A stretch of DNA of 64,000 nucleotides from Eubacterium sp. UBA3782 (lineage in GTDB: Bacteria; Bacillota; Clostridia; Lachnospirales; Lachnospiraceae): assembly GCA_002368795.1 (NCBI GenBank), contig DFFG01000003.1, forward strand, positions 1 to 64,000, given 5' to 3'. The position numbers were made by a program, and so were the translations under genes. Shown here in pieces: positions 14,100 to 54,623 of this stretch (positions are counted from its first letter, which is position 1; every line of letters starts with the position of its first letter). Under the pieces are notes generated by a model. That model did not search any database and was not told the DNA's origin. It saw only the letters and a program-made list of their open reading frames with translations.

Positions 14100-14189
14100 A
14101 AGCCCCTCCCGGGGAAAGACATTAAAGCGAACAATCTGCAGGCCGAAGGCCGAAGCCGTTCGCGTAATGCCTTTCCCCGGGAGGGGCTT
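14100..14189. repeat. R1 element, copy 1. A nested three-stem hairpin repeat with a variable 19-bp outer stem, core ACATTAAAGC(G/A)AACA.TCTGCAGGCC..GGCCGAAGCCGTT(C/T)GCGTAATGCC.
   Basis: Near-identical core also at 26466-26556 and 54549-54623. Outer and inner stems carry compensatory changes. Confidence 0.7.
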
Positions 14190-14202
14190 TAATAACGGAT
14201 CT

Positions 14203-14247
14203 AAAAATGTGCAAAAGGGTGGGGACACTGCAAATGCAGTGTCCCCT
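14203..14247 (-). terminator. Intrinsic terminator for the MFS gene (GGGGACACTGCA aat TGCAGTGTCCCC plus a T-rich tail on the minus strand)
   Basis: Perfect 12-bp stem. The minus-strand downstream sequence is ACCCTTTTGCACATTTTT. Confidence 0.6.
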
Positions 14248-14289
14248 GGTGTTATGCGTTTATGGATGTGTTTACATCTATGAGATGGC

Positions 14290-15657
14290 TTACTGCGGGG
14301 GCATGTTTGCCATCATGCGCTCAGCATTCTCTTTTGCATACTTGGCTGCCTCAGCATCTGTAATGCGGTAGAAGATAGCCATAATAGCTGCTGCTACAAT
14401 GAATACGATGCCAGGGAGCATGAAAGTAACTCTCATGAAGCTGTTTACCCAGTTTGCATCCGGAGTAAAGCCTGCAACGTATCCGGTGGAGGACAGAAGC
14501 ATCAGACCGATGGTTCCGCCGAGAGCCATACCGATCTTCATAGGCGGAGAAGCAAGGCCGGCAGCGATTGCACGGGTATCTTTTCCGGTCTTCCACAGGT
14601 AATACTCACCTGCATCAAGGAAGATCAGGACCATGTAAGGCATGTAGGTGTAGGTACCGAAGGCGGTGATCGCCATGCAGATGATATACAGGATCCAGCT
14701 CTTGGCTGCGATAAAGCTCAGGATGATCAGGCCGATACCGAAGGTTGCGAAACCAAATACACAGGAATTCTTCTTTCCGAGCTTAGCACCCACGCTGGGC
14801 ATGATCATGGCGGCTACGAAGCCGACAACAGCAGCGACCAGAGAAGCGACGGTCAGCTTTGTGAAGTCACCGACTACATAAATGAAGTAGTAGGTATAGT
14901 TGGACTGATACATGTAGGTTGCAACGTACATTACCGTAAAGGCAACGAATGCAGCCAGCATCTGCGGGTTCTTTACGATCGTACCGATCATATCACCGAC
15001 GGTGATGGTGGGACCGGAAGCATCCTTGTTGACCTGCGGATCCTTGCCGTCTGCCAGTGCAGAGATACGGCCCAGAGCCCAGGGCATCGGAATCATGAAG
15101 ACAAGTGCTACGACGAAGTAGTTCCAGCTTCCGAAGGGAAGGACAGTGACCAGCGTCGGAATGAAGGAACAGATGAGCGTGATGACGGTGGACTGACGGG
15201 TCATGTTGATGGACATTGCGTTTCTGTTCGCCATGTTCGCTCCGGCAACAGCTGCAAGTACACCGTAGTAACCAGTCTGGATCAGGTTCATTAAGCAGTT
15301 CAGAATCGTATAGGATACGGAAAGAACAGCTACACGAACGACCATAGGTGCTGTACTGGTGTTGCAGACCTCAAGGAGGATCATGACGGCCAGTACCCAG
15401 CGGCCATAGTACAGCCAGGTCTGGTTTTTGCCCTTGTTGCCGATCTTGACCTTCTCGATGATGGCACCGGCAAACAGGGAAACAATAAAGTCAATTGTCT
15501 TTGCGATACCCAGCGCAGCGGCCAGGGTCGCGGCAGGAATCAGAAGTACCTCAGTTGCGAAGGTATTCAGGTACATGAATCCAACCATGATGGCCAGGGT
15601 AAGGAGTGAATACGAACCCATGGTCCATATTTCTTTTTTGCTGCTTGTTACTTCCAT
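14290..15657 (-). CDS. MFS transporter, glycoside-pentoside-hexuronide (GPH):cation symporter family
   Basis: 12-TM profile. Start chosen at MEVTSSKKEIW with RBS GAGAGGAG. The longer ORF start at 15720 lacks an RBS. Confidence 0.7.
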   Translation of the reverse strand: MEVTSSKKEIWTMGSYSLLTLAIMVGFMYLNTFATEVLLIPAATLAAALGIAKTIDFIVSLFAGAIIEKVKIGNKGKNQTWLYYGRWVLAVMILLEVCNTSTAPMVVRVAVLSVSYTILNCLMNLIQTGYYGVLAAVAGANMANRNAMSINMTRQSTVITLICSFIPTLVTVLPFGSWNYFVVALVFMIPMPWALGRISALADGKDPQVNKDASGPTITVGDMIGTIVKNPQMLAAFVAFTVMYVATYMYQSNYTYYFIYVVGDFTKLTVASLVAAVVGFVAAMIMPSVGAKLGKKNSCVFGFATFGIGLIILSFIAAKSWILYIICMAITAFGTYTYMPYMVLIFLDAGEYYLWKTGKDTRAIAAGLASPPMKIGMALGGTIGLMLLSSTGYVAGFTPDANWVNSFMRVTFMLPGIVFIVAAAIMAIFYRITDAEAAKYAKENAERMMANMPPQ

Positions 15658-15820
15658 TTTTTTTCTCCTCTCTCTTGACAGGTTCTTAAAAACGCCAAAA
15701 CCCGCAGTAATTTCATGCAATTATTGTAACAAAAGCGAATAATTCAGACTATGTAAGGATAGTACAAAAACTGATGCGTAATTTCGAAAAATTTTATATT
15801 TGTCTGGCGGGTTCTGACTC

Positions 15821-15850
15821 TTGTAATGAATAGCATAAAAGTGATATAAT
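15821..15850 (+). promoter_or_regulatory. Candidate sigma-70 promoter (TTGTAA, 18 nt, TATAAT) in the AT-rich region upstream of the MATE gene
   Basis: Hexamers read directly from an AT-rich intergenic island. Confidence 0.3.
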
Positions 15851-15973
15851 AATTAATTACGAAAGCGGTATAACGCTGATACAGATCACCAAAGGGAAGG
15901 CAGGAGGAGCAGGATTTGCTCCTCCCTTTTTGTATATGGCAGGTTTCTTCCCTCCTGCCGGCAAGAGGTTTTT

Positions 15974-17479
15974 ATGGCAGAACAGGAAAAAAGGACGATA
16001 AAGACAGCGCTTGACCTTATTCCCTTTGGCAGCGGCGGGCCGGATCCTGCTGTGCTCAGGGAACGAAAGAGTGAGCTGCCATCCGGCGTGACACGCAGCA
16101 TGCTTCGAAGCGATGTGCTGATGATCACCCTGCCCAGTCTCTGTGAACTGGTTCTGACCCAGCTGACCAGTATGGCAGACCAGGTTATGGTCGGGCGGCT
16201 TCCGGGGGAGGAGGGCATCATGGCCCTCAGTGCGGTCGGGATCGCCATGCAGCCGAAGTTTTTGCTGATGACGATGGGCATGGCGATGAATGTAGGTGCT
16301 ACCGCGATGATCGCCCGGTACAGGGGAAAGCAGGACCGGCGGATGGCCAACCAGGCGTTTCGGCAGGCACTCTTTCTGAATCTTCTGCTTGGCCTGGCCT
16401 TTTCGGCCCTGGGGCTTGTGGGAGCAGAAGGGCTGATCCGGTTTATGGGAGGAGAAAACCTGGCGCCAGAGACCATGCAGGCCGGGATCCGCTATGTTCA
16501 GATCGCCATGTACGGCTTTCTGCCCCTGATGATGACCTTTACCATTACCGGCGCTCTGCGAGGGATCGGTGATTCCCGTACGCCTCTGATATACAATACG
16601 ATCGCCAATGTGGTGAATCTTATCTTTAATTATATGATGATCTACGGAAAGTTCGGGTTTCCGCGCATGGGTGTGGATGGCGCAGCCTGGGCGACGAATA
16701 TCGGGCAGATCGCCGCTTTTCTGATCGCCTTGGCGACTGTGTTTGGGAAGGACCGATATCTTCGCGTGGATCTCAGGGAGCCATTCCGCTTTGACTGGGA
16801 GCTGATGAAGGATATCGCATTGATAGGGATCCCGTCCATGATCGAACAGCTCTTTATGCGCACCGGCATCATTATCTATACGCGCTTTATCGTTGGCCTC
16901 GGAGATCTTTACTACGCAACGCATCAGATCCTGATGAGTGTGCAGGCCATGACCTTTATGACCGGACAGGGATTTGCGACGGCCAGCACTACGCTTATGG
17001 GGCAGAGCCTGGGGAAGCGGCGGTACGATATGGCGAAGCTGTACATGCAGACGACCAGGCAGCTTGGCTTCTGGGTTTCGATCCTGCTGGCACTTCTGAT
17101 GGTATTCTTTAACCGGACGATCATCGGCTTCTACAACAGTACGCCGGAGATCATTGCCGTCGGCAGCCAGATCATGATCCTGATGGCCGCAAGCCAGCCG
17201 ATCCAGAATTCCCAGTTCATCATCACCGGAGGCCTGCGGGGAGCAGGAGACACCCGGTACACGGCGGTTGTCATGGCCGTGACCGTCCTGGGTGTGCGCA
17301 CGGTTCTGGCCTGGTTTGCCATACGTGTGCTTGACCTTGGCATCTGGGGCGCATGGATCGCCCTGATCGCAGACCAGTGCCTCAGGTCTCTCCTTGTACT
17401 TCTCCGTTTCCGGTCCGGCCGGTGGGCTTTTATCCTTCCTCCGACCCAGGGCGGCGGCCAGGAAAGCCAGGAAGACTAA
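15974..17479 (+). CDS. MATE-family efflux transporter
   Basis: Typical MATE N-terminal stretch and 12 TM helices. The start at 15974 has AAGAGG. An alternative start MLRSDVLM at 16100 lacks an RBS. Confidence 0.7.
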   Translation: MAEQEKRTIKTALDLIPFGSGGPDPAVLRERKSELPSGVTRSMLRSDVLMITLPSLCELVLTQLTSMADQVMVGRLPGEEGIMALSAVGIAMQPKFLLMTMGMAMNVGATAMIARYRGKQDRRMANQAFRQALFLNLLLGLAFSALGLVGAEGLIRFMGGENLAPETMQAGIRYVQIAMYGFLPLMMTFTITGALRGIGDSRTPLIYNTIANVVNLIFNYMMIYGKFGFPRMGVDGAAWATNIGQIAAFLIALATVFGKDRYLRVDLREPFRFDWELMKDIALIGIPSMIEQLFMRTGIIIYTRFIVGLGDLYYATHQILMSVQAMTFMTGQGFATASTTLMGQSLGKRRYDMAKLYMQTTRQLGFWVSILLALLMVFFNRTIIGFYNSTPEIIAVGSQIMILMAASQPIQNSQFIITGGLRGAGDTRYTAVVMAVTVLGVRTVLAWFAIRVLDLGIWGAWIALIADQCLRSLLVLLRFRSGRWAFILPPTQGGGQESQED

Positions 17480-17607
17480 TTTTTGCTAATTGGGAATTTC
17501 ATCCTTTTATAAGGAGTGGTATAGTAAGAAAAGGGCAGCCGCATGAACTGCCTTATATGGCAGCTGCATTCGCCAAATTAAGATTTAACCGCACGGAGGA
17601 GTACGCA

Positions 17608-18879: not shown

Positions 18880-19081
18880 GAGAATATGACCGCAGCCCTT
18901 GCAGAAGGCGGGGCTGGCATACGGAAGGTTTTTTGAGAGAGCTGCCGTACCAGGCAGAACAGTACACGCCATACCGGAGAGGATATCCGCAGAGCGGAAG
19001 CCTTTCCTTTTGGAATGGGTGATGTATCCGCGGTCTGGTGTGACAGCTCTTTTATTTGCCTGCTCCGGCCTGTCCGGTGTA

Positions 19082-19110
19082 TTGACATAGCGGCATCTTT
19101 CTCTTAAAAT
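19082..19110 (+). promoter_or_regulatory. Sigma-70 promoter (TTGACA, 17 nt, TAAAAT) upstream of the helicase gene
   Basis: Consensus -35 and a near-consensus -10 about 70 nt upstream of the start. Confidence 0.4.
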
Positions 19111-19178
19111 AAAACAGAACATATGTACGAGAAGATTTCCGGTCGGTGTGCAGATCCGGACAGGCAGGAGGAAGAGGC

Positions 19179-21398: not shown

Positions 21399-21444
21399 AC
21401 AGACGGATGAAATATAAAAACAGAAAAAGGATGGGACGGACAAG

Positions 21445-23249: not shown

Positions 23250-23260
23250 GGAGAAGCGCA

Positions 23261-25506: not shown

Positions 25507-26331
25507 ATGACACCGGAAACGGAAACCATACAGCAGTATAAGGATTATATCGGAGTCTTTGACTCCGGAGTCGGCGGGATCAGCGTGCTTGGCGAGCTGA
25601 TCCGGGAGCTCCCGGAGGAAGATTTCTATTTCTTCGGAGACTCCGCAAACGCCCCCTATGGCGAAAAAACGATCGATGAAGTCAGAGAACTGACGCTCCG
25701 TGCAGCCGAAAGGATGGCGGAAAACGGCGTAAAGGCACTCGTGATCGCATGCAACACGGCTACAAGCGCCGCGGTAAAGCAGATCCGGGAGCGCTACAGC
25801 ACCCACATGCCGGTCATCGGGATCGAGCCGGCACTCAAGCCGGCGGCAGAGGGGATGGACCACGGCAGGATCCTGGTCATGGCAACAGCAATTACGCTGA
25901 AGCTGGAAAAATATCATGAGCTGTCCCACCGGCTGGAAAATCAGGCGGAGTTTATTCCGCTGGAGTGCAGCGGACTGGCCGCACGGATCGAAAAGGGAGA
26001 TCTGGATGGAGAGGATCTTAAAAGACTGCTCCGCGGACTTCTTGGTCCATATATTGGAAAGGTGGATGGCGTTGTGCTGGGATGTACCCATTATCCATTC
26101 GTCCGCAAGCAGATCCGGGAGATCATGGGGGATATCCCCCTGTATGACGGGGCAAAGGGAACAGCGAGAGAGCTGCACAGACAGCTGAAAAAGAGGGGGC
26201 TTAAAAAACCCGGGACCGGGAAGAAGGGACAGGTCGTTCTGGACTCCAGCCGGCATACCCCCGAGACCATGGCGGTCTATGAGGAGCTATGCCGCGCGGC
26301 GGCAGCCGGACTTTCCTCGGACTGCAGTTGA
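25507..26331 (+). CDS. murI: Glutamate racemase
   Basis: YIGVFDSGVGGISVL and VIACNTATSAAV motifs. Confidence 0.85.
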   Translation: MTPETETIQQYKDYIGVFDSGVGGISVLGELIRELPEEDFYFFGDSANAPYGEKTIDEVRELTLRAAERMAENGVKALVIACNTATSAAVKQIRERYSTHMPVIGIEPALKPAAEGMDHGRILVMATAITLKLEKYHELSHRLENQAEFIPLECSGLAARIEKGDLDGEDLKRLLRGLLGPYIGKVDGVVLGCTHYPFVRKQIREIMGDIPLYDGAKGTARELHRQLKKRGLKKPGTGKKGQVVLDSSRHTPETMAVYEELCRAAAAGLSSDCS

Positions 26332-26366
26332 TTCTTCAGCAGAGCTAAGAGCAGATCGAAACAAAA

Positions 26367-26434
26367 AAAGAACCGGAGACAGGTCGGAATGCATGCTGCA
26401 CCAGGACCTGACAGTCTCCGGTTCTTTGTTTTGG
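26367..26434. terminator. Strong hairpin (GAACCGGAGACAGGTC ... GACCTGACAGTCTCCGGTTC) flanked by A7 upstream and TTTGTTTT downstream. Probably the murI terminator.
   Basis: 16-19 bp inverted repeat with a T-run on the plus strand and an A-run (a T-run on the minus strand) on the other side. Confidence 0.55.
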
Positions 26435-26465
26435 GGACGAGAGATGTAATCGGTTAGCCAAGAAA

Positions 26466-26556
26466 GCACCTGCTCCCTGGAAGACATTAAAGCAAACATT
26501 CTGCAGGCCCGACAGGGCCGAAGCCGTTTGCGTAATGCCTTCCAGGGAGCAGGTGC
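26466..26556. repeat. R1 element, copy 2 (outer stem GCACCTGCTCCCTGGAAG / CTTCCAGGGAGCAGGTGC)
   Basis: Same conserved core as copy 1. The inner stems differ with compensating bases (GCAAAC/GTTTGC versus GCGAAC/GTTCGC). Confidence 0.7.
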
Positions 26557-26571
26557 TGTCCGGCAATCTTA

Positions 26572-26591
26572 GGAAGACATTAAAGCAAACA
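26572..26591. repeat. R1 fragment (GGAAGACATTAAAGCAAACA) next to copy 2, followed by a GGCCTG..CAGGCC hairpin that may terminate deoD
   Basis: 20-nt exact match to the 5' part of the R1 core. Confidence 0.5.
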
Positions 26592-26628
26592 GCAGGCCTG
26601 CGGTTTGACAGGCCAGCTGCAGTTTTGT

Positions 26629-27357
26629 TTATACAGCAGTGACAGCTGTCTTCAGTGCGATCTCCATCATCTCGTGGAAGGAGGTCCGGATCTCTGCCGG
26701 AGAGAGGTGGTCACCGGTAAAGATATGGTCAGAGATCGACAGGATGCTCAGGGCTTTTTTGTGGGCATACATGGCCTCAGCATACAGGCCTGCGGTTTCC
26801 ATCTCCACAGCCAGAAGGCCGGCTTCCTTGACCTTGCGGTTGACCTCAGGATCCGGATAATAGAAGAAATCCGAGGTGTATACGCTGCCGACGGAGGTGT
26901 GAACGCCCATCTCGTCTGCGATTCCGGCAGCTGTCCGCAGCATGCCCCAGTCGGCTGTCGGCGCGATCTGTCCGGGCAGACCATAGCGGGAGGGTACCGC
27001 AGAATTTGTGGAGGCGGACATGGCAAGGAGCACATCTCTGACCTTTACCTCGTCGGCGATGGCGCCGGCGCTGCCTATACGGATGATGGCCTCAACACCG
27101 AAGAAGGTGAAGAGCTCGTGCGCGTAAAGCACCATGGAGGGCACGCCCATTCCGCTTCCCATGACGGATACCTCGGTCCCCTGGTAGGTGCCGGTGTAGC
27201 CAAGCATATTGCGGACGTCGTTAAAGCATACAACATTTTCCAGATAATTGTCCGCGACAAATTTCGCGCGGAGCGGATCGCCGGGCATCAGGACAACCTT
27301 GGCGACATGTGTGCCATCTTTGATCTCGATGCAGGCAGAGGGTGAGGGTGTTCCCAT
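26629..27357 (-). CDS. deoD: Purine nucleoside phosphorylase, DeoD type
   Basis: The N-terminus ...VVLMPGDPLRAKF and SGMGVPS align to E. coli DeoD. RBS AAAGGAGAAAAC. Confidence 0.85.
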   Translation of the reverse strand: MGTPSPSACIEIKDGTHVAKVVLMPGDPLRAKFVADNYLENVVCFNDVRNMLGYTGTYQGTEVSVMGSGMGVPSMVLYAHELFTFFGVEAIIRIGSAGAIADEVKVRDVLLAMSASTNSAVPSRYGLPGQIAPTADWGMLRTAAGIADEMGVHTSVGSVYTSDFFYYPDPEVNRKVKEAGLLAVEMETAGLYAEAMYAHKKALSILSISDHIFTGDHLSPAEIRTSFHEMMEIALKTAVTAV

Positions 27358-28880: not shown

Positions 28881-28882
28881 CA

Positions 28883-38194: not shown

Positions 38195-38365
38195 TAACTG
38201 ATCTTCAGGGCGGGGTGCAATTCCCCACTGGCGGTAAAGTCCGCGAACCGAAAGGCCGAACCGGTGAAACTCCGGTACCAACAGTACAGTCTGGATGAAA
38301 GAAGATACCAAATTTGTTTTTAAATTTTGCAATGCCCTGGATCTTTGATTCGGGGCATTTTTCTG
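38195..38365 (+). promoter_or_regulatory. FMN riboswitch (RFN element) with an intrinsic terminator expression platform
   Basis: CTTCAGGGCGGGGTGCAATTCCCCACTGGCGGTAAAGTCCGCGA...GGTGAAACTCCGGTACCAACAGTACAGTCTGGATGAAAGAAGAT matches the RFN consensus. Terminator ATGCCC..GGGGCAT TTTTT at about 38330-38362. Confidence 0.85.
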
Positions 38366-42953: not shown

Positions 42954-44012
42954 ATGGCCGACTGGAGAGATAATGTAAGGCGCGTCGTGCCCTATGTGGC
43001 AGGAGAGCAGCCAAACTGGCCGGACATGGTCAAGCTGAATACAAATGAAAACCCCTACCCGCCTGCACCTGGGGCGGCAGAGGTGCTGAAAAACATGAAT
43101 ACGGAGCAGATGCGTCTGTATCCGGATCCCACAGCCGGTGATCTGGTGAAGGCCATCGCGGCGTACTACGGCGTCGATCCGGAGCAGGTCTTTGTGGGCG
43201 TCGGCTCAGATGATGTCATCGCCATGGCCTTTATGACCTTCTTCAATTCTGACAAGCCGATCCTGTTTCCGGACATCAGCTATTCCTTCTACGAGGTCTG
43301 GGCTGACTGCTTCCGGATCCCATACCGGCAGGTGCCGCTGGATGCAGATTTCAAGCTGCAGCCGGCAGACTATTCTGCAGAAAACGGAGGCATCATCTTC
43401 CCAAATCCCAATGCCCCCACCGGCATCGCCCTGGAGCCGGATGCCGTGGAATCAATCGTCCGCAGCAATCCCGGTTCGGTCGTCATCGTAGATGAGGCCT
43501 ATGTGGATTTTGGAACGGCATCCGCCCTTCCTCTTCTGGAGAAATATGACAATCTCCTGGTCGTACAGACCTTCTCGAAATCACGGTCCATGGCCGGCAT
43601 GCGGATCGGTTTTGCCATCGGCAGCCGTGAGCTGATCGCCTGTATGCAGGACGTCAAGTACTCCGTCAATTCCTACACAATGAACCGGCCGTCGATCCTG
43701 ATGGGAAAGGCCGTGATGGAGGATGAGGCATACTTCAGGGAGACCTGTAAAAAGATCATCCAGACCCGCGAGTGGGCAAAGGAAGAACTGGAAAAGCTTG
43801 GCTTTACGCTCACGGATTCCAAAACAAATTTCCTGTTCGCGTCCCACAGAAGCGTCCCTGCAAAGAAGCTCTTCCAGATGCTGAGAGAGAAGCACATCTT
43901 TGTCCGGTACTTCGACCGGCCGCGGATCGACAATTATCTGAGGATCACCATCGGCACAAAAGAAGAGATGGAGATCCTGCTGGCGGCCCTCCGCACATAT
44001 CTGAACAAATAA
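42954..44012 (+). CDS. hisC: Histidinol-phosphate aminotransferase
   Basis: LNTNENPYPP and FSKSRSMAGMRIGF (PLP Lys). GGAGG sits 9 nt before the ATG at 42954. Confidence 0.85.
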   Translation: MADWRDNVRRVVPYVAGEQPNWPDMVKLNTNENPYPPAPGAAEVLKNMNTEQMRLYPDPTAGDLVKAIAAYYGVDPEQVFVGVGSDDVIAMAFMTFFNSDKPILFPDISYSFYEVWADCFRIPYRQVPLDADFKLQPADYSAENGGIIFPNPNAPTGIALEPDAVESIVRSNPGSVVIVDEAYVDFGTASALPLLEKYDNLLVVQTFSKSRSMAGMRIGFAIGSRELIACMQDVKYSVNSYTMNRPSILMGKAVMEDEAYFRETCKKIIQTREWAKEELEKLGFTLTDSKTNFLFASHRSVPAKKLFQMLREKHIFVRYFDRPRIDNYLRITIGTKEEMEILLAALRTYLNK

Positions 44013-44017
44013 AAGCA

Positions 44018-44199
44018 GGGGCTGCCGCACCACGAAGAGAAAAGCGTGCATAAACATTCTGAAGGGAACATCCGCAGTGCCGGTACTTGGAGGAATCCTT
44101 TTTTAGGAGTCTGACGTAGTACCGCTGCACTTTGGACAGAGCGGGAGCGTTTCCCGAAAGAATATTTATGCACGTTATACTTCGCGGTGCGGCAGCCCC
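44018..44199. repeat. R2 element, copy 1 (reverse orientation). About 150-nt core with ~20-bp TIRs (AAAGCGTGCATAAAYATTCT), nested inside a 14-bp inverted repeat GGGGCTGCCGCACC/GGTGCGGCAGCCCC.
   Basis: Core shared with 46972-47147 and 57847-58014. The flanking stems differ per copy but are always complementary. Confidence 0.75.
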
Positions 44200-44267
44200 T
44201 GATTCATTTTCATGGATTGCGAGCTGTCGGATACGTTTTATGCTGCTGTGCAGCAGGTCTGCCGGAC

Positions 44268-45190: not shown

Positions 45191-46081
45191 ATGGATAATG
45201 AACTGAAATTTGCGATCCTGATCGACGCAGATAATGTGACCGATAAATATATCAAGATTATATTGGAGGAGACCGCGAACTATGGCATCGCGACCTACAA
45301 GCGGATCTACGGCGACTGGACCAGCACCAGGATGAAGTCCTGGAAGCCGGTGCTTCTGGATAATTCGATCATACCGATCCAGCAGTACAGCTACACCACG
45401 GGAAAGAATGCGACGGATTCGGCGATGATCATCGATGCGATGGATATCCTGTATTCCAATACGGTGGACGGGTTCTGCATCGTATCTTCCGACAGCGATT
45501 TTACCCGCCTTGTCGCCCGTCTGAGGGAGGACGGCAAGCAGGTCATCGGCATGGGCGAGAGCAAGACGCCGCAGCCCTTTGTTTCGGCCTGCAACCAGTT
45601 TAAATACCTGGACATGCTCTACGAGCAGAGGCAGCAGGAGGCAGCCGAGGAGGCAGCGGCAGAGGAAGCGGCGGCAGCGGCAGCAGCGGCGGAGGAAGCA
45701 AAGACCACCACCCGCCGGACTTCAAAGAAGAAGACGGCCGCGTCAACGGCAAAGACAAAGGAACAGAAGGAAAAGGAGCAGAAGGAGAAGAAGGAGCTGG
45801 AAAAGAAGCGGCAGAAGGACCTGAACCGTGTCAGGAACACTCTGAATGCAACCATCGAAAAGTTCTCTGACGAGGATGGATGGATCTTCTCCGGAAAGCT
45901 GGGTGACCAGCTGGCCAAGCGTATGCCGGAATTTGATGTCCGGAACTTTGGCTTCAACAAATTCACCTCCTTTATCAAGTCTCTGGGAACCTATGAGTTT
46001 ACTTCCAGGAACGATTCCAACGGACAGAAACAGATCTACTTCCGCCTGAAGACAAAGGGTGACAAGGGCGAACAGAAATAA
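45191..46081 (+). CDS. NYN-domain (LabA-like) protein with a Lys/Glu/Ala low-complexity linker and a C-terminal OST-HTH/LOTUS-like domain
   Basis: AILIDADNV...CIVSSDSDF, characteristic of NYN nucleases. Confidence 0.65.
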   Translation: MDNELKFAILIDADNVTDKYIKIILEETANYGIATYKRIYGDWTSTRMKSWKPVLLDNSIIPIQQYSYTTGKNATDSAMIIDAMDILYSNTVDGFCIVSSDSDFTRLVARLREDGKQVIGMGESKTPQPFVSACNQFKYLDMLYEQRQQEAAEEAAAEEAAAAAAAAEEAKTTTRRTSKKKTAASTAKTKEQKEKEQKEKKELEKKRQKDLNRVRNTLNATIEKFSDEDGWIFSGKLGDQLAKRMPEFDVRNFGFNKFTSFIKSLGTYEFTSRNDSNGQKQIYFRLKTKGDKGEQK

Positions 46082-46094
46082 GGAAATACGAAAT

Positions 46095-46934: not shown

Positions 46935-46971
46935 AGGCAGCCGCATATAAGGGCAGTATGCCCCAAAAAAA

Positions 46972-47147
46972 GGAGCTGCCGCACGGAAAATAAGATGGGC
47001 ATAAATATTCTTACGGGAAACGCTCTCGCTCTGTCCTCGTGCAGCGGTACTACGTCGGAATCCTAAAAAGGATTCCTCCAAGTACCGGCACTGCGGATGT
47101 TCCCTTCAGAATGTTTATGCCCTCTCTCGTTTCCGTGCGGCAGCCCC
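46972..47147. repeat. R2 element, copy 2 (forward orientation), inside the stem GGAGCTGCCGCACGG / CCGTGCGGCAGCCCC. The stem is flanked by A7 on one side and TTTT on the other, so it acts as a bidirectional terminator.
   Basis: Central hairpin GGAATCCtaaaaaGGATTCC. The TIRs are GGGCATAAATATTCT and AGAATGTTTATGCCC. Confidence 0.75.
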
Positions 47148-47150
47148 TTT

Positions 47151-48287
47151 TCAGTCGTAGTCATCCAGAAAACTGTGGCGCACACCGCCCTGTTTATAGC
47201 CCAGGACGGCGTCCAGATGAATGTTTTCCATGCTGCGGAAGATGTTGCCCTCCACGTTTTCATTTGTTTTCTTCAGCTGGGCGATCAGCTGCTTGGCTTC
47301 GATCCGCTTGGAACTGCTGTCTCCGGACGCCTCGTGGGCGATCGTCTCTGTGAAGTGGCAGGCACAGCGGATAAAATGCAGATCGTTTTCGTCCCGCCAG
47401 CGCTTGATGTCGTCCTCCCGGATGAGGTACATCGGGCGGATCAGCTCCATGCCCTCAAAATTCATGCTGTGGAGTTTGGGCATCATGGTCTGGGTCTGGC
47501 CGCTGTATAGGATGCTCATGAGGGTCGTCTCGATGACATCATCATAATGGTGCCCGAGGGCGATCTTGTTGCAGCCCAGTTCCTTTGCCTTGCTGTAGAG
47601 ATACCCCCTGCGCATGCGGGCACAGATGTAGCAGGGTGAGTGGGGGATCGTGTCGACCGCATCGAAGATGCGGGAGGAAAACATGGTCAGCGGGATGCCG
47701 AGCAGACGTGCGTTTTCCTGAATCATGCCAAGCGTCGCCGGGCTGTAGCCGGGGTCCATGCAGAGAAATACCGTCTCAAAGTTAAACTTGTTCCGGCGGC
47801 GGATCTCCTGGAAGAGTTTGGCCATCAGCATGGAGTCCTTGCCTCCGGAAATGCAGACGGCGACACGATCGCCGGGGGAGAGCAGTTCATAGTCGGAGAT
47901 CGCTTTTACAAAGCGGCTGGTGATCCGCTTGGAAAAACGTTTGCGAAGACTTTTTTCGATGAGCTCTCTGCGTTCCTCTACATCGGTGATCTGCTGAAGC
48001 TGTCCCACCAGCCACTGACCGTAGCCGCCGGACAGGTGCCAGACCGACAGATCGCCATCCTGGAGCTTTTCTGCAGTGCGCAGAGACATTCCGCCAAACA
48101 TGCAGAAAATGACAGGCTTTTTGCCGGCAGGAAGAGCAGCACGGTCGCTTTCCAGTTCTTCCCGGGTGATGTGGACCGCTCCCGGAAGACTGCCCTGGCG
48201 GAAGGATTCCTCATCCCGGATATCGATAAGTATATATTCCGAAGGATCCCAGCTTTGCAGCTCCTCCGGTGACACAGACTGGATCAT
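47151..48287 (-). CDS. Fusion of a rhodanese (sulfurtransferase) domain to a TtcA/TilS-like PP-loop tRNA thiolation enzyme (tRNA 2-thiocytidine synthetase-like)
   Basis: N-terminal rhodanese region. PP-loop SGGKDS and the TtcA-type C-terminal CxxC pairs. Start chosen at MIQSVSPEEL with RBS GAGGTG. Confidence 0.7.
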   Translation of the reverse strand: MIQSVSPEELQSWDPSEYILIDIRDEESFRQGSLPGAVHITREELESDRAALPAGKKPVIFCMFGGMSLRTAEKLQDGDLSVWHLSGGYGQWLVGQLQQITDVEERRELIEKSLRKRFSKRITSRFVKAISDYELLSPGDRVAVCISGGKDSMLMAKLFQEIRRRNKFNFETVFLCMDPGYSPATLGMIQENARLLGIPLTMFSSRIFDAVDTIPHSPCYICARMRRGYLYSKAKELGCNKIALGHHYDDVIETTLMSILYSGQTQTMMPKLHSMNFEGMELIRPMYLIREDDIKRWRDENDLHFIRCACHFTETIAHEASGDSSSKRIEAKQLIAQLKKTNENVEGNIFRSMENIHLDAVLGYKQGGVRHSFLDDYD

Positions 48288-48496: not shown

Positions 48497-48904
48497 ATGA
48501 GTAAGTATGTGGAACGGGCAAAGGAGCTTCGCGCGATCGTATCGCCCCATTATAACTGTGCCCAGTCTGTGGTCGTCCCCTTCGCGGCCGCTGCCGGTGT
48601 CCCGGAAGAGACGGCCCTGCGGTTTGCCGACGGCTTTGGCGGCGGAATGCGGCGGGCTTCCGTCTGCGGTGCGGTCACCGGAGGGATCATGGCGCTGGGG
48701 CTGTTTGGTCTGGGTGATCCGAAAACACTGGGGGCCTATCACAGGCGCCTGAAGGAACGTCACGATGGTATGCTGGACTGCGCGGATCTTCTGCGGGTCA
48801 ATGCAGCGGCAGGCAGGGAAAAGAAGCCCCATTGCGATGCTATGGTCTTTGAGTGTGTGGAGCTTGTGGAAGAGATCCTCAGAGAAAACGGAAAGCTGCA
48901 GTAA
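48497..48904 (+). CDS. C_GCAxxG_C_C-family putative redox protein
   Basis: Cysteine spacing YNCAQSV...CGAVTGG...C..C. RBS GGAGGA before the ATG. Confidence 0.5.
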   Translation: MSKYVERAKELRAIVSPHYNCAQSVVVPFAAAAGVPEETALRFADGFGGGMRRASVCGAVTGGIMALGLFGLGDPKTLGAYHRRLKERHDGMLDCADLLRVNAAAGREKKPHCDAMVFECVELVEEILRENGKLQ

Positions 48905-49122
48905 GGCTAAAACACTCTGGAGTATACGGACGCGAAATATACGGATCAAAAACTGCTTGAGTTTTTCACAGACAAATGATATACTCTCTATACTTTCAGG
49001 AAGAACAGACCGCTGTTCTGCGGTCTTCCTGAAAGCCGCGGCAGCATCTGCCGCATCTGCCGGGTTTCCCGGAATCTTTTATCCATTTTTTTATCTCACA
49101 TCAATCATCAGGAGCATGCGCA

Positions 49123-50865: not shown

Positions 50866-53297
50866 GAGAACAGGAACTGAACAAACGCATCTGCAGGACC
50901 AGACAGAGAATCAGGATCGTATCCGCAGGCATTCTGGCAGTACTTCTCTTGGGCCAGGCGCTGTACCGGCCGGTATATGCCGGGGAAGATGCCAGGAAAC
51001 AGAAAAGCAATGCGGCACAACAGGAGGCGGGATCGTCAACGGCAGAACTCCCGGATGATAAAAAAGAGACAGAAGAGCAGCTTCCGGTCCGCATCGTGCT
51101 CCGTCCGGTAAAAACAGAGGGAGAGGCAGATCCCGATCTTACCGGAGAGATCAAAAAGCAGGTGCAGGCTGCCATTGATGCCGGAACCAAGGATAAGGAT
51201 ATTCCGGAAAAGAATGCGGAGCCCGCACCTGCTGTTGGAGGAGAAAAAGCAGAGCAAGTTGAAACGTCAGAAAGGCTGCAGTCCAAAGAGGCTGAAATCT
51301 CCTGGCAGGAAACGAAAGAAACGCAAACGCCAGAGCCTGAAACTGAAGCGCCGGGATCAGAAGAGACGGATACGCCAGACGCAGAAGCGAAAGTGACAGA
51401 AACAGAAAAGACAGAAACACCGGAGACAGAAACAGAAGAGGCAGATACCACGGGGACCGGATCAGAAGGAACAAAAACAACGGATACGGAAGGGCTGGAA
51501 ACGGAAGGAACAGAAGAGACAGAAACCGAACCTGCAGAAGAGGAGATTTCTCTGCAGGAGTGGATCTGCAGCCTGATCAGCTGGAGCTATACATACGATG
51601 ACCAGGTAGAAGCGCCGGGATACAGCAGGCCGGCAGGCACCTCGCCCATCCTTCTTCAGTTCAAGGAAGATCTCCGCATCCGCTTTAATCCAGATGACGG
51701 GGAGGACAGCCAGAGCTTTCTGACCACCTTGCCTCGTGAAAATGGCGGAAATGATGAAGAAAACCAGCCGCAGGATGGTGAGAAACCATCGGGCGGAAAC
51801 AATGGCGGCAGTGATGGAAAAGAAGATGGCGGCCATGAGAATCCGGATAAGACCGGCGGACACGAAAGTGGGGAACAAAACGATAAAAATACGGAAGATA
51901 GTAACAAGAGTGGAGATAACAACACTGATAATGATGAGAATAATGACAGTAATGGAGACAAAACCCAAAATAATCAGGAAACTGGTCAGGGTTCAGGGAC
52001 ATTTTATGATCTAAGTGGAGGGGAATCCCAATCTGGTCCGGGAAGTATGAGTGGGGAAGATCCGTCCGGTGAGGGCGGCGAGGAAGGAGGAGCTCCGGAG
52101 ACTTCTGGCGAAACGGGGCCTGGACTGGATGAACAGCGTCTGCTGGAGGAAACCATCATCGATGGCGTCGAGGATGGACATTCCTATACCGGAGATGTAC
52201 AGCCGCAGGTCACGCTGTCAGAGGGAGGATATGCCAGTGCCGATGTCACATTGCGCCGCTCACGCATGGGTGAAGTGGAGGATGTGACGGGTAGTCTGGT
52301 ACTGACAGGAGAAAGCAGCGGACAAAAGGCGCAGGCCGAAGCACTAACCGCTGTTCCGGAAAATGACGGTCTGTACACTCTGGAGGTTACCTATCGGGAC
52401 GATTCCGGCAACGAGGTAAAAAAAGAAGTTTCTTTTACAGTCAACCGCTTTGGTTCCGTCTATGCGTACAACGATGCACTCCAGAACATCAAAGATGCCT
52501 GGGTCCGAAGCGTGACCGAGCCCCTGATTATATCGGAATACAATCCGGATCCGCTTCTGGAGGACTCACTGGAGATAGAGATCACCCGTGATGGCGTTCC
52601 GCTGAAAAATGTCCGGTATTCTGCAGAACAGGCAGAACGCTCTTCGGAGGGCAGGACCGGCGGATGGTATCGGTATGATTACACGATCGATCCGGCAAAT
52701 TTCCGTAAGGACGGTACCTACCGGATCTCCGTTTCTTCAAAGGATGCCGCAGGAAACCGTCCAGACTCCATCAGCAGCGAAAGCGGAGAGATCCTCTTTC
52801 GGGTGGATTCTGCCGCCCCGACGATCCGGAGCATTTCCGGCCTGGAGATGCCCTTTGTGCGGGCAGAAAGCCAGAAGGTGCGTTTTATCGTCCGCGACAA
52901 TATGGGCCTGGCCTCCGTGACGGTCTGGCTGGATGATGCGATCCTGCTTCAGGTGACGAGCTTTGAAGATCCAGGCAGCTATCATGGCGAATTTACGATC
53001 GATGAAGGAACGGAACATCATGTACGGATCATCGCATGTGATCTGGCTGGAAATATACTGGATACAGACCGCAGGGACAGAGACGGCAGGTACCTGTTTG
53101 CTCCCATATCACCCTTTGTGCGGGAGATTACGGTATCGGATAATCTTCTGGCGTTCTTCATCCAGACAGGCCAGGGGCGGCTGATCTTTGCCGCAGCCGG
53201 GATAATCATGTCTTTGGCGGCTTTGCTGATCTTCCTGGGGATCCGGGCATGGAGAACGGGCAGATACCGGGAGGAACCAACAAGATGGCTGCGCTAA
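50862..53297 (+). CDS. Cell-surface protein of 811 aa. It has an N-terminal signal-anchor, a Thr/Glu-rich acidic repeat region, an Asn/Asp/Gly-rich low-complexity region, beta-rich Ig-like domains and a C-terminal TM.
   Basis: Start overlaps the kinase stop (ATGA). RBS GGAGAG. Hydrophobic segments sit at both ends. Confidence 0.6.
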   Translation: MREQELNKRICRTRQRIRIVSAGILAVLLLGQALYRPVYAGEDARKQKSNAAQQEAGSSTAELPDDKKETEEQLPVRIVLRPVKTEGEADPDLTGEIKKQVQAAIDAGTKDKDIPEKNAEPAPAVGGEKAEQVETSERLQSKEAEISWQETKETQTPEPETEAPGSEETDTPDAEAKVTETEKTETPETETEEADTTGTGSEGTKTTDTEGLETEGTEETETEPAEEEISLQEWICSLISWSYTYDDQVEAPGYSRPAGTSPILLQFKEDLRIRFNPDDGEDSQSFLTTLPRENGGNDEENQPQDGEKPSGGNNGGSDGKEDGGHENPDKTGGHESGEQNDKNTEDSNKSGDNNTDNDENNDSNGDKTQNNQETGQGSGTFYDLSGGESQSGPGSMSGEDPSGEGGEEGGAPETSGETGPGLDEQRLLEETIIDGVEDGHSYTGDVQPQVTLSEGGYASADVTLRRSRMGEVEDVTGSLVLTGESSGQKAQAEALTAVPENDGLYTLEVTYRDDSGNEVKKEVSFTVNRFGSVYAYNDALQNIKDAWVRSVTEPLIISEYNPDPLLEDSLEIEITRDGVPLKNVRYSAEQAERSSEGRTGGWYRYDYTIDPANFRKDGTYRISVSSKDAAGNRPDSISSESGEILFRVDSAAPTIRSISGLEMPFVRAESQKVRFIVRDNMGLASVTVWLDDAILLQVTSFEDPGSYHGEFTIDEGTEHHVRIIACDLAGNILDTDRRDRDGRYLFAPISPFVREITVSDNLLAFFIQTGQGRLIFAAAGIIMSLAALLIFLGIRAWRTGRYREEPTRWLR

Positions 53298-53405
53298 GGC
53301 AGCACCGGCAATACTTCTTGAGCAAAAACTCTTTCAACAGGTTTTACTGGGATAAGAAATCCATGGAAAAAGGAAGAAAAGCCGGAAGAATCCTCTTGGG
53401 TGTGG

Positions 53406-53434
53406 TTGACAAAGAAAGGGAATACCGGTATACT
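53406..53434 (+). promoter_or_regulatory. Sigma-70 promoter for trxB (TTGACA, 17 nt, TATACT)
   Basis: Consensus hexamers about 48 nt upstream of the start. Confidence 0.45.
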
Positions 53435-53481
53435 TTGTATAGATTGTACAAAATCAAATTTTCCACAACCAGGAGGTCGCG

Positions 53482-54396
53482 ATGGCTGGAGTACAGAGTG
53501 TTGATATTTTGATCATTGGCGGCGGAACAGCAGGTTTGACCGCGGCTATTTATGCAGTTCGTGCTGGAAAGAGCGCGCTGATCCTTGAAGCAAAGGCTTA
53601 TGGCGGCCAGATCGTCAATACGCCGGATATCGAGAATTATCCCGGCATGGCGCATGTGTCCGGTTTTGATTTTGCCACCGGCCTCTATGAGCAGGCGATC
53701 GGTCTTGGTGCAAAGCTGAAATACGAGAAGGCCCTGTCCATCGAGGATAACGGCAAAACAAAGCTGGTAAAAACCAGAAGACATACCTATGAGTGCAAGG
53801 CAGTTATCCTGGCAACAGGGGCCAAGAACCGTACCCTTGGTCTGGACCGGGAAGAGCAGTTCACCGGAAGCGGAGTTTCCTACTGCGCAACATGTGACGG
53901 TTCCTTCTTCAAGGGAAAGACAGTCGCGGTAAACGGCGGCGGAAACACGGCCATCGAGGATGCGCTCTATCTGTCAGATATCTGCGAGAAGGTTTATGTG
54001 ATCCACAGAAGAGATGAATTCCGCGGAGATGCTGCCGATGTGGAGAAGATGCGCGCCAGAGACAACATCGAATTCATTCTGAATGCAAACGTTACAGCCT
54101 TGATTGGCGACCAGAAGGTGGAAGCTATCGAGGTTACGGACAAGAATACCGGCGAGAAGAGAGAAGTAAAGGTCGACGGTCTGTTTATCGCGGTCGGTCA
54201 GGTTCCTGATAATATCGCCTTTGAAAATGTGGTCGAGCTTTCCTCCGGTTATATCGCAGCCGGCGAAGACTGCAAAACCGCTACACCGGGCATATTCACC
54301 GCCGGTGACTGCCGGACGAAGAATGTCCGTCAGCTCACGACAGCCGCTGCAGATGGCGCTGTGGCAGCCCTTGCCGCTTGCGCATACATCAAATAA
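53482..54396 (+). CDS. trxB: Thioredoxin-disulfide reductase
   Basis: FAD motif ILIIGGGTAGLTAA and redox centre CATCDG. Confidence 0.9.
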   Translation: MAGVQSVDILIIGGGTAGLTAAIYAVRAGKSALILEAKAYGGQIVNTPDIENYPGMAHVSGFDFATGLYEQAIGLGAKLKYEKALSIEDNGKTKLVKTRRHTYECKAVILATGAKNRTLGLDREEQFTGSGVSYCATCDGSFFKGKTVAVNGGGNTAIEDALYLSDICEKVYVIHRRDEFRGDAADVEKMRARDNIEFILNANVTALIGDQKVEAIEVTDKNTGEKREVKVDGLFIAVGQVPDNIAFENVVELSSGYIAAGEDCKTATPGIFTAGDCRTKNVRQLTTAAADGAVAALAACAYIK

Positions 54397-54428
54397 GAGC
54401 TGAAAAAAATCAAACACAAAGAAAAAGA

Positions 54429-54506
54429 CTGCCGCACCAGGCAAGACCATGCAGGATCGTAAAAAGGGATCCACGCAAAAGCTGTCTGGTGCGGCAGCCT
54501 TTTTTG
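54429..54506 (+). terminator. trxB terminator. Stem CTGCCGCACCAG/CTGGTGCGGCAG plus CCTTTTTT, with an unusually long 44-nt loop holding an internal GGATC..GATCC hairpin.
   Basis: 12-bp perfect stem followed by a T6 run. Confidence 0.55.
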
Positions 54507-54548
54507 TGAGCGATAAAACAAAAATTGTTGGCAGCCTTGAAAGCACAA

Positions 54549-54623
54549 GCCCCGGAAGACATTTAAGCAAACAATCTGCAGGCCTGATAAGGCCGAAGCC
54601 GTTTGCGTAATGCCTTACGGGGC
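54549..54623. repeat. R1 element, copy 3 (outer stem GCCCCGGAAG/CTTACGGGGC)
   Basis: Core ACATTTAAGCAAACAATCTGCAGGCC..GGCCGAAGCCGTTTGCGTAATGCC. Confidence 0.7.

Follow-up and report, generated by a model that had tools for sequence, protein, structure and literature searches.

The window, a stretch of 64,000 nucleotides, contains three full copies and a 20-nt fragment of a hairpin-forming repeat, R1 (Table 1). An earlier note had located these elements, and reading of the sequence gave the same positions within 1 nt. As that note also stated, all three copies lie between convergent genes, whose Pfam domains are HTS (metA) and MFS_2 for copy 1, Asp_Glu_race (murI) and PNP_UDP_1 (deoD) for copy 2, and Pyr_redox_2 (trxB) and TrmO (= tsaA) for copy 3, where the TrmO stop is 7 nt from the repeat. 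In addition to the terminators of trxB and MFS, terminator hairpins of murI and deoD are present beside R1.

Table 1. R1 copies, their parts and neighbouring features in the window (MFE of the RNA fold in kcal/mol).
Feature	Position	Strand	Remarks
MetA gene (metA), beside copy 1	13137-14060	+	
R1 copy 1	14100-14189	+	MFE -65.1, z -8.7; 96.4 bits (covariance model)
Copy 1, left arm	14100-14118	+	AAGCCCCTCCCGGGGAAAG, then A.C junction
Copy 1, core	14119-14170	+	G-type: GCGAAC/GTTCGC, apical GGCC-GAA-GGCC
Copy 1, right arm	14171-14189	+	
MFS canonical terminator	14221-14246		
MFS gene, beside copy 1	14290-15657	-	
murI, beside copy 2	25507-26331	+	
Optional left module of the R1 family	26436-26464	+	window version GACGAGAGATGTAATCGGTTAGCCAAGAA; family consensus TTGATGAGAAC..CGATTAG.CAAGAAAG
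R1 copy 2	26465-26557	+	MFE -66.3, z -11.1; 108.2 bits (covariance model)
Copy 2, left arm	26465-26483	+	AGCACCTGCTCCCTGGAAG
Copy 2, core	26484-26538	+	A-type: GCAAAC/GTTTGC, apical GGCCC-GACA-GGGCC
Copy 2, right arm	26539-26557	+	
Copy 2, right linker and fragment	26558-26591	+	linker GTCCGGCAATCTTA; 20-nt fragment GGAAGACATTAAAGCAAACA at 26572-26591
Candidate degenerate older R1 unit	26572-26634	+	GGAAGACATTAAAGCAAACA-GCAGGCC-loop-GGCC-AGCTGCAGTTTTGTTTATAC
deoD, beside copy 2	26629-27357	-	
trxB, beside copy 3	53482-54396	+	
trxB own terminator	54481-54498		
R1 copy 3	54549-54623	+	MFE -37.2, z -5.7; 85.1 bits (covariance model)
Copy 3, short left arm	54549-54558	+	GCCCCGGAAG; one mismatch between the arms
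Copy 3, core	54559-54613	+	A-type, apical GGCCT-GATA-AGGCC
Copy 3, short right arm	54614-54623	+	CTTACGGGGC
TrmO gene, beside copy 3	54630-55313	-	

Each copy folds into the nested hairpin that had been described, in which an outer stem is followed by CATTA/TAATG, GCRAAC/GTTYGC and apical GGCC(C)/(G)GGCC stems (z from -5.7 to -11.1). With DNA folding parameters, the z values were -9.4, -11.3, and -5.1 for copies 1, 2, and 3, respectively. The 24-mer GGCCGAAGCCGTTTGCGTAATGCC matched the window three times at ≤1 mismatch, compared to 0.00 expected, and GACATTAAAGCAAACA matched four times at ≤1 mismatch and six times at ≤3 mismatches, the latter compared to 0.36 expected. A covariance model of the kind proposed in the note, built from 36 R1 copies and run on the window, recovered as full copies exactly the three already known.

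The fragment behind copy 2 repeats the left part of the R1 core in direct orientation, and the same layout of linker and fragment also opens the next unit in R1 tandem arrays (L007, L011, L013, L015, L026, and L033). A partial nhmmer match was obtained at 26572–26600 (E 0.0097), and terminator-like sites were seen on the - strand. Judged from the sequence and with low confidence, the candidate unit in Table 1 is probably an older, degenerate R1 unit, whose central hairpin (26592–26625) may now be the terminator-like hairpin of deoD on the - strand.

R1 is a genuine multi-copy repeat, as had been claimed. In the 384 kb searched, which comprised the window and rumen metagenome contigs picked for carrying R1, approximately 60 nhmmer matches were found, with 45 exact core matches across 33 metagenome loci; therefore, the window copies are not the only ones. 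The copies are dispersed over many unrelated intergenic sites, dozens of them as single copies, and lie close to 3' ends in gaps between convergent genes. Gaps of this convergent type accounted for 19 of 27 R1 sites, as opposed to 44 of the 248 gaps in the background (odds ratio 11, p = 3e-8). Tandem arrays are direct, with periods of 74–116 nt, and only one inverted pair (L014) was seen. The orientation of R1 agreed with the sign of the GC skew in 16 cases and opposed it in 24, indicating no replication-strand orientation bias. The G+C content of R1 is 57%.

The exact core 22-mer was found in none of 185,579 GTDB species genomes, nor in viral contigs, and no similar DNA was detected in 72,556 plasmids, 50,697 phages or viral contigs. 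A profile search of the 1.3 Mb surrounding pcrA in 80 Clostridia genomes gave no match either, and R1 was not present in the closest deoD relative found (deoD 79% identical). The expectation that R1 matches no described family was borne out: at the Rfam gathering threshold the whole window yielded an FMN riboswitch only, a permissive Rfam scan of 26420–26640 yielded generic long-hairpin (miRNA precursor) matches far below threshold, and a literature search for the R1 sequence gave no match. Neither a transposase nor a HUH/RAYT-like gene was detected among the window ORFs scanned with Pfam, and no repeat longer than 300 nt with R1 ends was found among the loci. These results indicate that R1 is a real family of DNA repeats, ~90 nt long and hairpin-forming, which had not been described before and which belongs to an uncultured Clostridia bacterium of the sheep rumen. 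The core identity described below, together with the absence of R1 from the closest relative found, suggests a recent spread within one lineage.

The family has a modular anatomy, consisting of an optional left module, a variable arm, an asymmetric apical core of ~60 nt, a second variable arm, a linker, and a partial direct repeat. Across 36 copies, the pairwise identity was 94% in the core, a value partly inflated because an exact 22-mer of the right core half had served to retrieve the metagenome loci, and 39–44% in the distal arms. In the other core half, which played no part in this retrieval, the unpaired bases A27, A28, A35, T37, G40, C41, and A42 are invariant. The arms, 14–22 bp long, are complementary within a copy (0.72) to a greater extent than between copies (0.41), and contain 534 Watson–Crick, 36 wobble-type, and 10 mismatched pairs. 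The compensating changes that had been noted in the window were found at every stem level: 88% of the cells in the 36 copies were paired, double-sided changes occurred in 190 cells compared to 71±7 in shuffles and 49–60 with slid partners, and the covariation score was 0.306 compared to 0.10. The arms also show compensated indels and G-C to C-G flips.

Of the earlier statement that the outer stems are entirely different yet complementary, the complementarity within each copy holds, whereas the arms are not entirely different, since they share a loose consensus of an A-run and GCACACGCCCCYGGAAG and form subfamilies. These subfamilies recur across loci, and arm words of at least 10 nt (10–11 nt) were common to different loci in 6 pairs, compared to 0.17 in shuffles. 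In the 384 kb, no CACACGCCCC-type arms, including core-less palindromes, were found without a core, and the left module occurred in non-coding sequence only 15–31 nt upstream of R1 cores and in the same orientation. The sharing of subfamilies between loci and the absence of arm and flank modules without a core indicate that the arms are carried with the element.

With respect to strand, the non-Watson–Crick arm pairs comprised 13 G.T (G.U) and 23 A.C, an asymmetry that is not significant. The RNA fold of the complementary strand is more stable by 3–4 kcal/mol. An A-tract lies to the left of the stem in 22 of the 36 copies and a T-tract to the right in 9 (p = 0.005); correspondingly, at least 5 of the 8 nucleotides after the stem are U in 22 of 36 copies on the complementary strand and in 9 of 36 on the written strand. 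A terminator consensus scan of the window copies flagged copy 1 alone, and only via a sub-hairpin. The ends of the core are inverted repeats (GGAAGACATTAAAGCAAAC versus GTTTGCGTAATGCCTTCC), and the palindrome runs on past these candidate termini into the variable arms. No target-site duplication was seen at R1, where the flanks are reverse complements (e.g., CCTGG...CCAGG); the sole direct repeat, AGCAC(AT) at the murI/deoD indel, is the start of the arm itself.

When orthologous gaps were compared, as the earlier note had advised, strains with flanks at least 99% identical differed in the number and orientation of R1 copies, whereas the copy between trxB and TrmO was kept. The murI/deoD gap contains no copy, one on the + strand, or two on the - strand. 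The hairpin-less alleles also lack the R1 arms and still keep the R1 flank modules, and may be deletion products rather than virgin sites; no clean pair of filled and empty sites was found. The left module at this gap is far more diverged between strains than the DNA around it. The metA/MFS gap contains 1, 2, or 3+ tandem 74-nt units depending on the strain, and its arms show a compensated T->G / A->C change that occurred in situ between strains. Arrays with hybrid arms were also seen, which point to unequal crossover. Of 9 other strain contigs, 8 carry the trxB/TrmO copy and one ends upstream of it. In all five strain contigs that reach the right arm of this copy, the arm reads CTTCCG..., indicating that the arm mismatch of copy 3 is private to the window strain. 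In the comparison of L032 and L036 as a diverged orthologous pair, the element region lies inside a 100% identical block. The allele differences at the murI/deoD and metA/MFS gaps show R1 to be a dispensable and dynamic element.

These results suggest that R1 is probably a lineage-specific, small, non-coding interspersed palindromic repeat, similar to REP/BIME, SPRITE/BOX/RUP or MITE elements, with a terminator-like side effect. R1 would spread and turn over at the DNA level, by way of a mobilising enzyme, of ectopic recombination among its copies, or of both. The core, nearly invariant even at its unpaired bases, would be held so as a sequence-specific recognition site for propagation; in keeping with this reading, R1 shares a 14-nt motif, AAACAWTCTGNAGG, exclusively with a second repeat family, R2. 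The arms, needing complementarity only, would drift fast, and could be re-perfected by hairpin selection at the level of the replicator and/or by template switching at quasipalindromes, which are known to be corrected in this manner (PMC7202029). R1 would build up between convergent genes because such gaps tolerate insertions. SPRITE, RUP, and BOX are likewise over-represented there, and have been interpreted either as parasitic mobile elements or as terminators that have been co-opted (PMC3049150); in E. coli, convergent gaps contain ~60% of the REPs (bioRxiv 10.64898/2026.03.23.713779). The ~45-bp hairpin would likely have the side effect of a terminator or a 3'-end block. On the other hand, the diversity of R1 alleles could be explained by recombination alone, without true transposition, and the retention of the trxB/TrmO copy in every contig reaching it is also expected of a useful element.

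A rather unlikely alternative is that R1 is primarily a structured RNA selected by the host, either as a module of 3'-UTRs or as a bidirectional terminator. A protein or RNase would then bind the invariant apical core, selection on the transcript would maintain the pairing of the basal stem, and the multiplicity of R1 would reflect recruitment to many gene ends. The strong covariation at all stem levels, the invariant unpaired core nucleotides, the A-tract/U-tract polarity with the more stable complementary-strand fold, the proximity to convergent 3' ends, and the constancy of the trxB/TrmO copy would all be accounted for, and such action has been proposed for REPs and SPRITE (bioRxiv 10.64898/2026.03.23.713779; PMC3049150). 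However, the alleles with 0, 1 (+) or 2 (-) copies in the murI/deoD gap and the varying number at metA/MFS indicate that a given R1 copy is dispensable and orientation-free, and canonical terminators already lie beside R1 at trxB, MFS, murI, and deoD. Stepwise RNA-level compensation does not easily produce compensated indels and G-C to C-G flips, and R1 is absent from the nearest relative found. The absence of significant strand asymmetry between G.U and A.C pairs and the dispensability between near-identical strains favour a cause at the level of the DNA or the replicator over a locus-specific RNA function.

It is improbable that R1 is a non-mobile hypervariable minisatellite, arising by VNTR-like local duplication, with dispersed copies that are old segmental remnants homogenised by gene conversion alone. 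The strain-dependent tandem arrays, the hybrid arms indicative of unequal crossover, and the lack of both a target-site duplication and a detected transposase fit this explanation, whereas the dozens of single copies with a 94% identical core in unrelated intergenic contexts, the opposite orientations at the same site in different strains, and the absence from the closest relative found do not.

The alternative raised in the earlier note, insertion into pre-existing palindromes, is highly improbable; under it, a mobile core of ~60 nt would have entered the loops of intrinsic terminators between convergent genes, and the outer stems would be host sequence. Precedents exist in IS1397/ISKpn1, which insert in REP loops, and in class C group II introns, which insert after terminators. 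Furthermore, R1 is located at convergent gene ends, its distal arms share only ~40% identity between copies, and the arms resemble bidirectional terminators in their A-run, C-rich 5' arm, G-rich 3' arm, and occasional T-run. Nevertheless, the arm words shared between loci, the confinement of arms and flank modules to the neighbourhood of cores, the lack of core-less palindromes, the hairpin-less murI/deoD alleles without arms, and the arm changes in situ argue against it, as do arms exceeding the stems of ordinary terminators next to genes that have separate terminators. By inspection, three further candidates were rejected: a hammerhead-like reading of CUGCAGGCC...GGCCGAAG and the left module UUGAUGAG, in which the invariant C3/A of CUGANGA and the GAAA do not match and for which Rfam gave no match; a K-turn or C/D-box, whose motifs (UGAUGA from the left module and CUGA from the right linker) are present in only a minority of copies and without a terminal stem; and an attC-like site, with a misfit to the R''/R' consensus and no integron context.

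Among known systems, the REP/BIME elements (REPINs) of Enterobacteria and Pseudomonas resemble R1 in being high-copy extragenic imperfect palindromes, mostly between the 3' ends of convergent or tandem genes, with mosaic arrays with linkers, compensating changes that keep pairing, strain variation, and proposed side effects as terminators or mRNA stabilisers. The REPs of P. syringae are also biased towards gene 3' ends (PMC3184786). In contrast to R1, which is ~90 nt long with a conserved apex and a variable base, the REP unit is 20–40 nt long, with a conserved stem and a 5' GTAG, and often occurs in inverted pairs. REPs are mobilised by a single-copy RAYT (Y1 HUH transposase), whereas for R1 no such gene was detected among the window ORFs scanned; the R1 arrays are direct rather than alternating, and its host is a Firmicute (Clostridia).

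SPRITE is, like R1, a Firmicute interspersed repeat of ~100 nt near 3' ends, with a long stem that far exceeds ordinary terminators and leads into a U-rich tract, such as 22 of 36 R1 copies have on the complementary strand; it occurs in a single species group, with no target-site duplication or empty site established, and is the repeat with the strongest enrichment between convergent genes (PMC3049150). BOX shares with R1 a modular structure with tandem modules. SPRITE is, however, AT-rich (28% GC), has AAAA/TTTT termini and ~30 copies, and is set apart from R1, which is GC-richer and far denser, by description; unlike SPRITE, R1 combines a sequence-invariant asymmetric apical core with hypervariable arms. 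MITEs (Correia, Nezha, bcr1) are likewise short, highly base-paired and non-coding, have inverted repeats at their ends (candidate ends GGAAGACATTA...TAATGCCTTCC in R1), and are dispersed, strain-polymorphic, and subject to compensatory hairpin changes (bcr1, PMC3184786). However, the target-site duplication that defines MITEs is missing from R1, whose flanks are inverted complements rather than direct repeats. A parent IS sharing its ends was not detected among the R1 loci or in the plasmid, phage, and viral collections, and the palindrome varies in its outermost part instead of being conserved there. Hotspots of template switching at quasipalindromes offer a DNA-level route from imperfect to perfect inverted repeats, producing paired substitutions and indels without RNA selection (PMC7202029); this is a mutational mechanism rather than an element family, and it would act on R1 only by our inference. 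IS200/IS605-derived (PATE-like) elements transpose as single-stranded DNA with a replication-strand bias, which R1 does not exhibit.

R1 therefore adds a further member to a well-known class of elements and does not reveal biology of a new kind. Palindromic repeats of this small, interspersed type have been studied in depth in Proteobacteria and pneumococci and hardly in gut and rumen Clostridia. At the ends of many convergent genes, R1 probably contributes hairpins that resemble terminators. It breaks short-read assemblies, many contigs of which end within it, and provides a ready-made strain-typing (VNTR) marker. Since the apex of R1 is constrained in sequence and its stem co-evolves freely, R1 is a natural test bed for RNA-level compensation versus DNA-level palindrome correction, and it warns that covariation in a repeat alone is no proof of a functional RNA.

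Together with R2, R1 shows that such repeats form a dense, active family in this uncultured rumen lineage. To our knowledge, no REP/RAYT-type system has been characterised in the phylum of the R1 host. As a speculation that we consider doubtful, R1 and R2 might be substrates of one undiscovered hairpin-specific mobilisation/recombination system of rumen Clostridia, which would recognise the asymmetric apical motif (AAACAWTCTGNAGG + CGAAGCCGTTYGCGTAATG) and not the base of the hairpin, accept basal stems of any sequence as long as they are complementary, and position or invert the core in either direction at the same site. If so, the system would be a REPIN-like replicator with an inverted recognition logic. 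The 14-nt AAACAWTCTGNAGG occurs 37 times in the 384 kb, 28 times in R1, 9 times in R2, and nowhere else, and R1 adjoins R2 in 5 loci.

Reading the sequence bore out the positions that an earlier note had given for three copies and one fragment of R1, a ~90-nt nested-hairpin repeat (table), and its core strings occur in the window far above the shuffle expectation, every copy lying on the + strand, as R1 was first written. RNA folding of copies 1, 2, and 3 reproduced the nested architecture proposed in that note (-65.1, -66.3, and -37.2 kcal/mol; z = -8.7, -11.1, and -5.7, respectively), as did folding with DNA parameters. The RNA of the complementary strand is more stable by 3-4 kcal/mol, because an A.C junction and several internal mismatches turn into G.U. 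The gene pairs described as convergent around the copies (metA/MFS, murI/deoD, and trxB/TrmO) are all so arranged. The fragment is the beginning of the next tandem R1 unit and probably continues into an old copy that has degenerated; the present terminator-like hairpin of deoD is probably the central hairpin of that copy.

Features of the window and of the metagenome loci (L-numbers, rumen contigs carrying R1)
Feature	Position	Strand	Description
R1 copy 1	14100-14189	+	arms 19 bp, perfect; between metA and MFS
R1 copy 2	26465-26557	+	arms 19 bp, perfect; between murI and deoD
R1 copy 3	54549-54623	+	arms 10 bp, one mismatch; between trxB and TrmO
R1 fragment	26572-26591	+	second occurrence of GGAAGACATTAAAGCAAACA
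Terminator-like hairpin	14221-14246		long, GGGGACACTGCA-AA-TGCAGTGTCCCC; between R1 copy 1 and MFS stop
Terminator-like hairpin	26363-26431		long, GAACCGGAGACAGGTC...GACCTGACAGTCTCCGGTTC and T-run; 3' of murI
Terminator-like hairpin	54481-54498		
Hairpin, ~85 nt	54421-54505		arms GACTGCCGCAC...GTGCGGCAGCC and T-run; directly 3' of trxB
R2	44005-44215	+	
R2	46955-47160	-	
R2	57831-58027	-	
R2 in loci	L019 6885-7083; L021 7044-7240; L035 5639-5821; L029 1918-2100; L010 2383-2564; others		
ORF	45191-46081	+	NYN-domain and OST-HTH/LOTUS protein, predicted RNase-type fold; between two R2 copies
FMN riboswitch	38197-38310	+	RF00050, 109.9 bits, E 1e-24
Long ORF	1427-3472	-	
Long ORF	5034-6800	+	
Long ORF	6816-8417	+	

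In an alignment of 36 single R1 copies, the ~60-nt core showed a pairwise identity of 94%, and the 15 nt at the distal end of each arm showed a between-copy identity of just 39-44%. The arms, 14-22 bp long in most copies, were complementary (Watson-Crick, ungapped) at 72% within a copy versus 41% between copies, with 534 Watson-Crick, 13 G.T, 23 A.C, and 10 other pairs. The covariation claimed from the first few copies stood well above both controls, shuffled and slid partners: 88% of the cells were paired (shuffled, 76%; slid, 33-46%), 190 were changed on both sides (71±7 and 49-60), and the covariation score was 0.306 (0.10 and 0.05-0.10). The pair that varies in GCRAAC/GTTYGC was A-U in 23 copies and G-C in the other 13, with no mismatch, and the apical stem exhibited independent compensations (GACCC/GGGTC, GGCAC/GTGCC, and CGC/GCG variants). 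Invariance in the right half of the core is partly a matter of ascertainment, since that half was the fishing pattern. This worry is limited by the left half, which was not fished with and is equally conserved, unpaired bases included, and by CGAAGCCGTTYGCGTAATG, which is kept in copies found by the profile only, even those with an altered apical stem.

R1 is longer and more modular than was first seen. In many copies there is a right linker (..GCTGTATGCAATCT..), after which GGAAGACATTAAAGCAAACA occurs a second time, and about ten have a left module, TTGATGAGAAC..CGATTAG.CAAGAAAG; both were found solely beside cores. Tandem arrays with a unit of 74-116 nt are common. Some of their units are hybrids, in which the left arm of an element is combined with the right arm of the adjacent one, indicating unequal crossover.

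The earlier note had also considered insertion into pre-existing palindromes, which predicts that the arms of different loci are unrelated and that empty sites already have them; we observed neither. Different loci shared 6 pairs of identical arm words of at least 10 nt (0.17 in shuffles, maximum 1) and 16 pairs of at least 8 nt (3.2 in shuffles), examples of sharers being window copy 1 and L018, L022 and L029, and L026, L015, and L016 mutually. In addition, no CACACGCCCC-type arm without a core was found, and the murI/deoD alleles that lack the hairpin also lack the arms. The arms thus belong to the element, move along with it, and diverge fast.

The three window gaps were recovered from strains of the same population by exact-protein look-ups. 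For the metA/MFS gap, the number of 74-nt R1 units was 1, 2, or 3+, depending on the strain. In one strain group (left arm GCCCCGCCCAGGG, first right arm CCCCGGGCGGGGC), a T to G change relative to the window is compensated by A to C opposite, and an intermediate strain combines the old left arm with the new right arm.

For the murI/deoD gap, at least four alleles were observed despite flanks that are ~99.5% identical: allele A, without a hairpin (186-nt spacer, five contigs); allele B, the window type, with one copy (+); allele C, also with one copy (+), differing by one base in an arm and having another linker; and allele D, with two cores (77 and 46 bits) on the minus strand in a 400-nt spacer. 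The indel between A and C/D is bounded by a direct repeat, AGCAC(AT), which also forms the first bases of the R1 arm. Because of this coincidence, deletion between tandem units and homology-guided integration both fit; a conventional TSD does not.

For the trxB/TrmO gap, a single copy was found in each of the eight strain contigs extending to the site (a ninth stops upstream), and the arm mismatch of window copy 3 is a private mutation. The polymorphism among strains indicates that single R1 copies are dispensable, orientation-free, and fast-changing. Such dynamics, typical of selfish or recombinogenic repeats, fit poorly with a locus-specific RNA function.

When the same crude ORF calling was applied to every gap, R1 was found in 19 convergent gaps versus 8 others, against a background of 44 versus 204 (odds ratio 11, p = 3e-8). 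Its orientation bore no relation to the sign of GC skew (16 same, 24 opposite). Of the 36 copies, 22 have an A-tract (≥5/8) ahead of the left arm, whereas just 9 have a T-tract beyond the right arm (asymmetry p = 0.005); on the strand complementary to that first written, most copies thus resemble a very long intrinsic terminator. Ordinary terminator-like hairpins already flank R1 at three places in the window, so that it is at most an extra block; given the hairpin 3' of murI and that between R1 copy 1 and the MFS stop, the neighbouring genes need no R1 for a hairpin. Terminator or 3'-end-protecting activity would be a likely by-product.

The exact core 22-mer GGCCGAAGCCGTTYGCGTAATG had no match in 185,579 GTDB species genomes or in IMG/VR, and had 45 matches at 33 metagenome loci, almost all from one assembly set (sheep rumen, AUXO01/SHIW14; Shi et al. 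2014, PMC4158751). The core profile found ~60 copies in the 384 kb of the window and those loci. As the loci were selected for having R1, an unbiased density comes from the window alone: 3 copies/64 kb. Many contigs with the window's own genes terminate within R1, which is how multi-copy repeats usually show up in short-read assemblies. The collections searched contained no close relative of the host: the best identities elsewhere were ≤74% for PcrA and ≤80% for DeoD, with all matches in Clostridia. The profile found nothing in 1.3 Mb around pcrA from 80 Clostridia genomes or in the 20-kb loci of the nearest DeoD relative. Plasmid and phage collections contained no similar DNA, Rfam no family for R1, and the searchable literature no mention of its sequence.

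R1 is dispersed, modular, arrayed, and polymorphic among strains; its arms belong to the element, its apex is constrained, and its base co-varies. We infer that the apex is a sequence-specific site required for propagation, and that pairing may be the sole requirement on the arms. Pairing could be upheld by selection that favours copies able to form the hairpin, as has been proposed for REPINs, and/or by template-switch correction. The latter, described for quasipalindromes (PMC7202029), would also account for paired indels and for G-C/C-G flips in R1. Convergent gaps would be landing zones that tolerate R1, as argued for SPRITE, RUP, and BOX (PMC3049150).

In its behaviour R1 is like REP/BIME and SPRITE, and it also resembles a MITE, yet it belongs to none of these. 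It is ~90 nt long with a conserved apex, unlike the conserved-stem type, its arrays are direct, and it lacks a TSD as well as any known RAYT or parent IS; the window ORFs scanned gave no transposase-type Pfam match. R1 represents a new family within a kind of element that is already known. Its interest for rumen genomics and strain typing is moderate, and it offers a clean case in which covariation in a repeat need not imply a functional RNA.

R2, a second nested-hairpin repeat of ~190 nt (RNA MFE -107.6 kcal/mol, z -12), is sited in intergenic gaps, with ~20 sites in the loci, and has terminator-like outer arms, AAAAGGGGCTGCCGCAC...GTGCGGCAGCCCCTTTT. The 384 kb contain 37 occurrences of the 14-nt motif AAACAWTCTGNAGG, all of them within R1 (28) or R2 (9); the window accounts for 6, versus 0.2 expected. 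Beyond the motif, the alignment of the two consensuses is modest (score 63.8 versus 43±5 in shuffles), and R1 directly adjoins R2 in five loci. R1 and R2 may have a common origin or a common recognising protein. The arms of the ~85-nt hairpin 3' of trxB resemble those of R2 over ~9-11 nt each; its centre is short and unrelated, and the R2 profile gave no significant match. This hairpin may be an internally deleted R2 that now serves as the trxB terminator.

The long ORFs in window 1-8400 had no Pfam match at E≤1e-5, and the gene models there are uncertain, since two longest-ORF calls elsewhere are not recorded as genes. Finally, L032 (1-1900) and L036 (1117-3000) are 100% identical over ~2.4 kb, R1 copy included, and identity falls to ~68% across the upstream gene, a pattern suggestive of either a hypervariable gene, possibly for a surface protein, or a recombination boundary.
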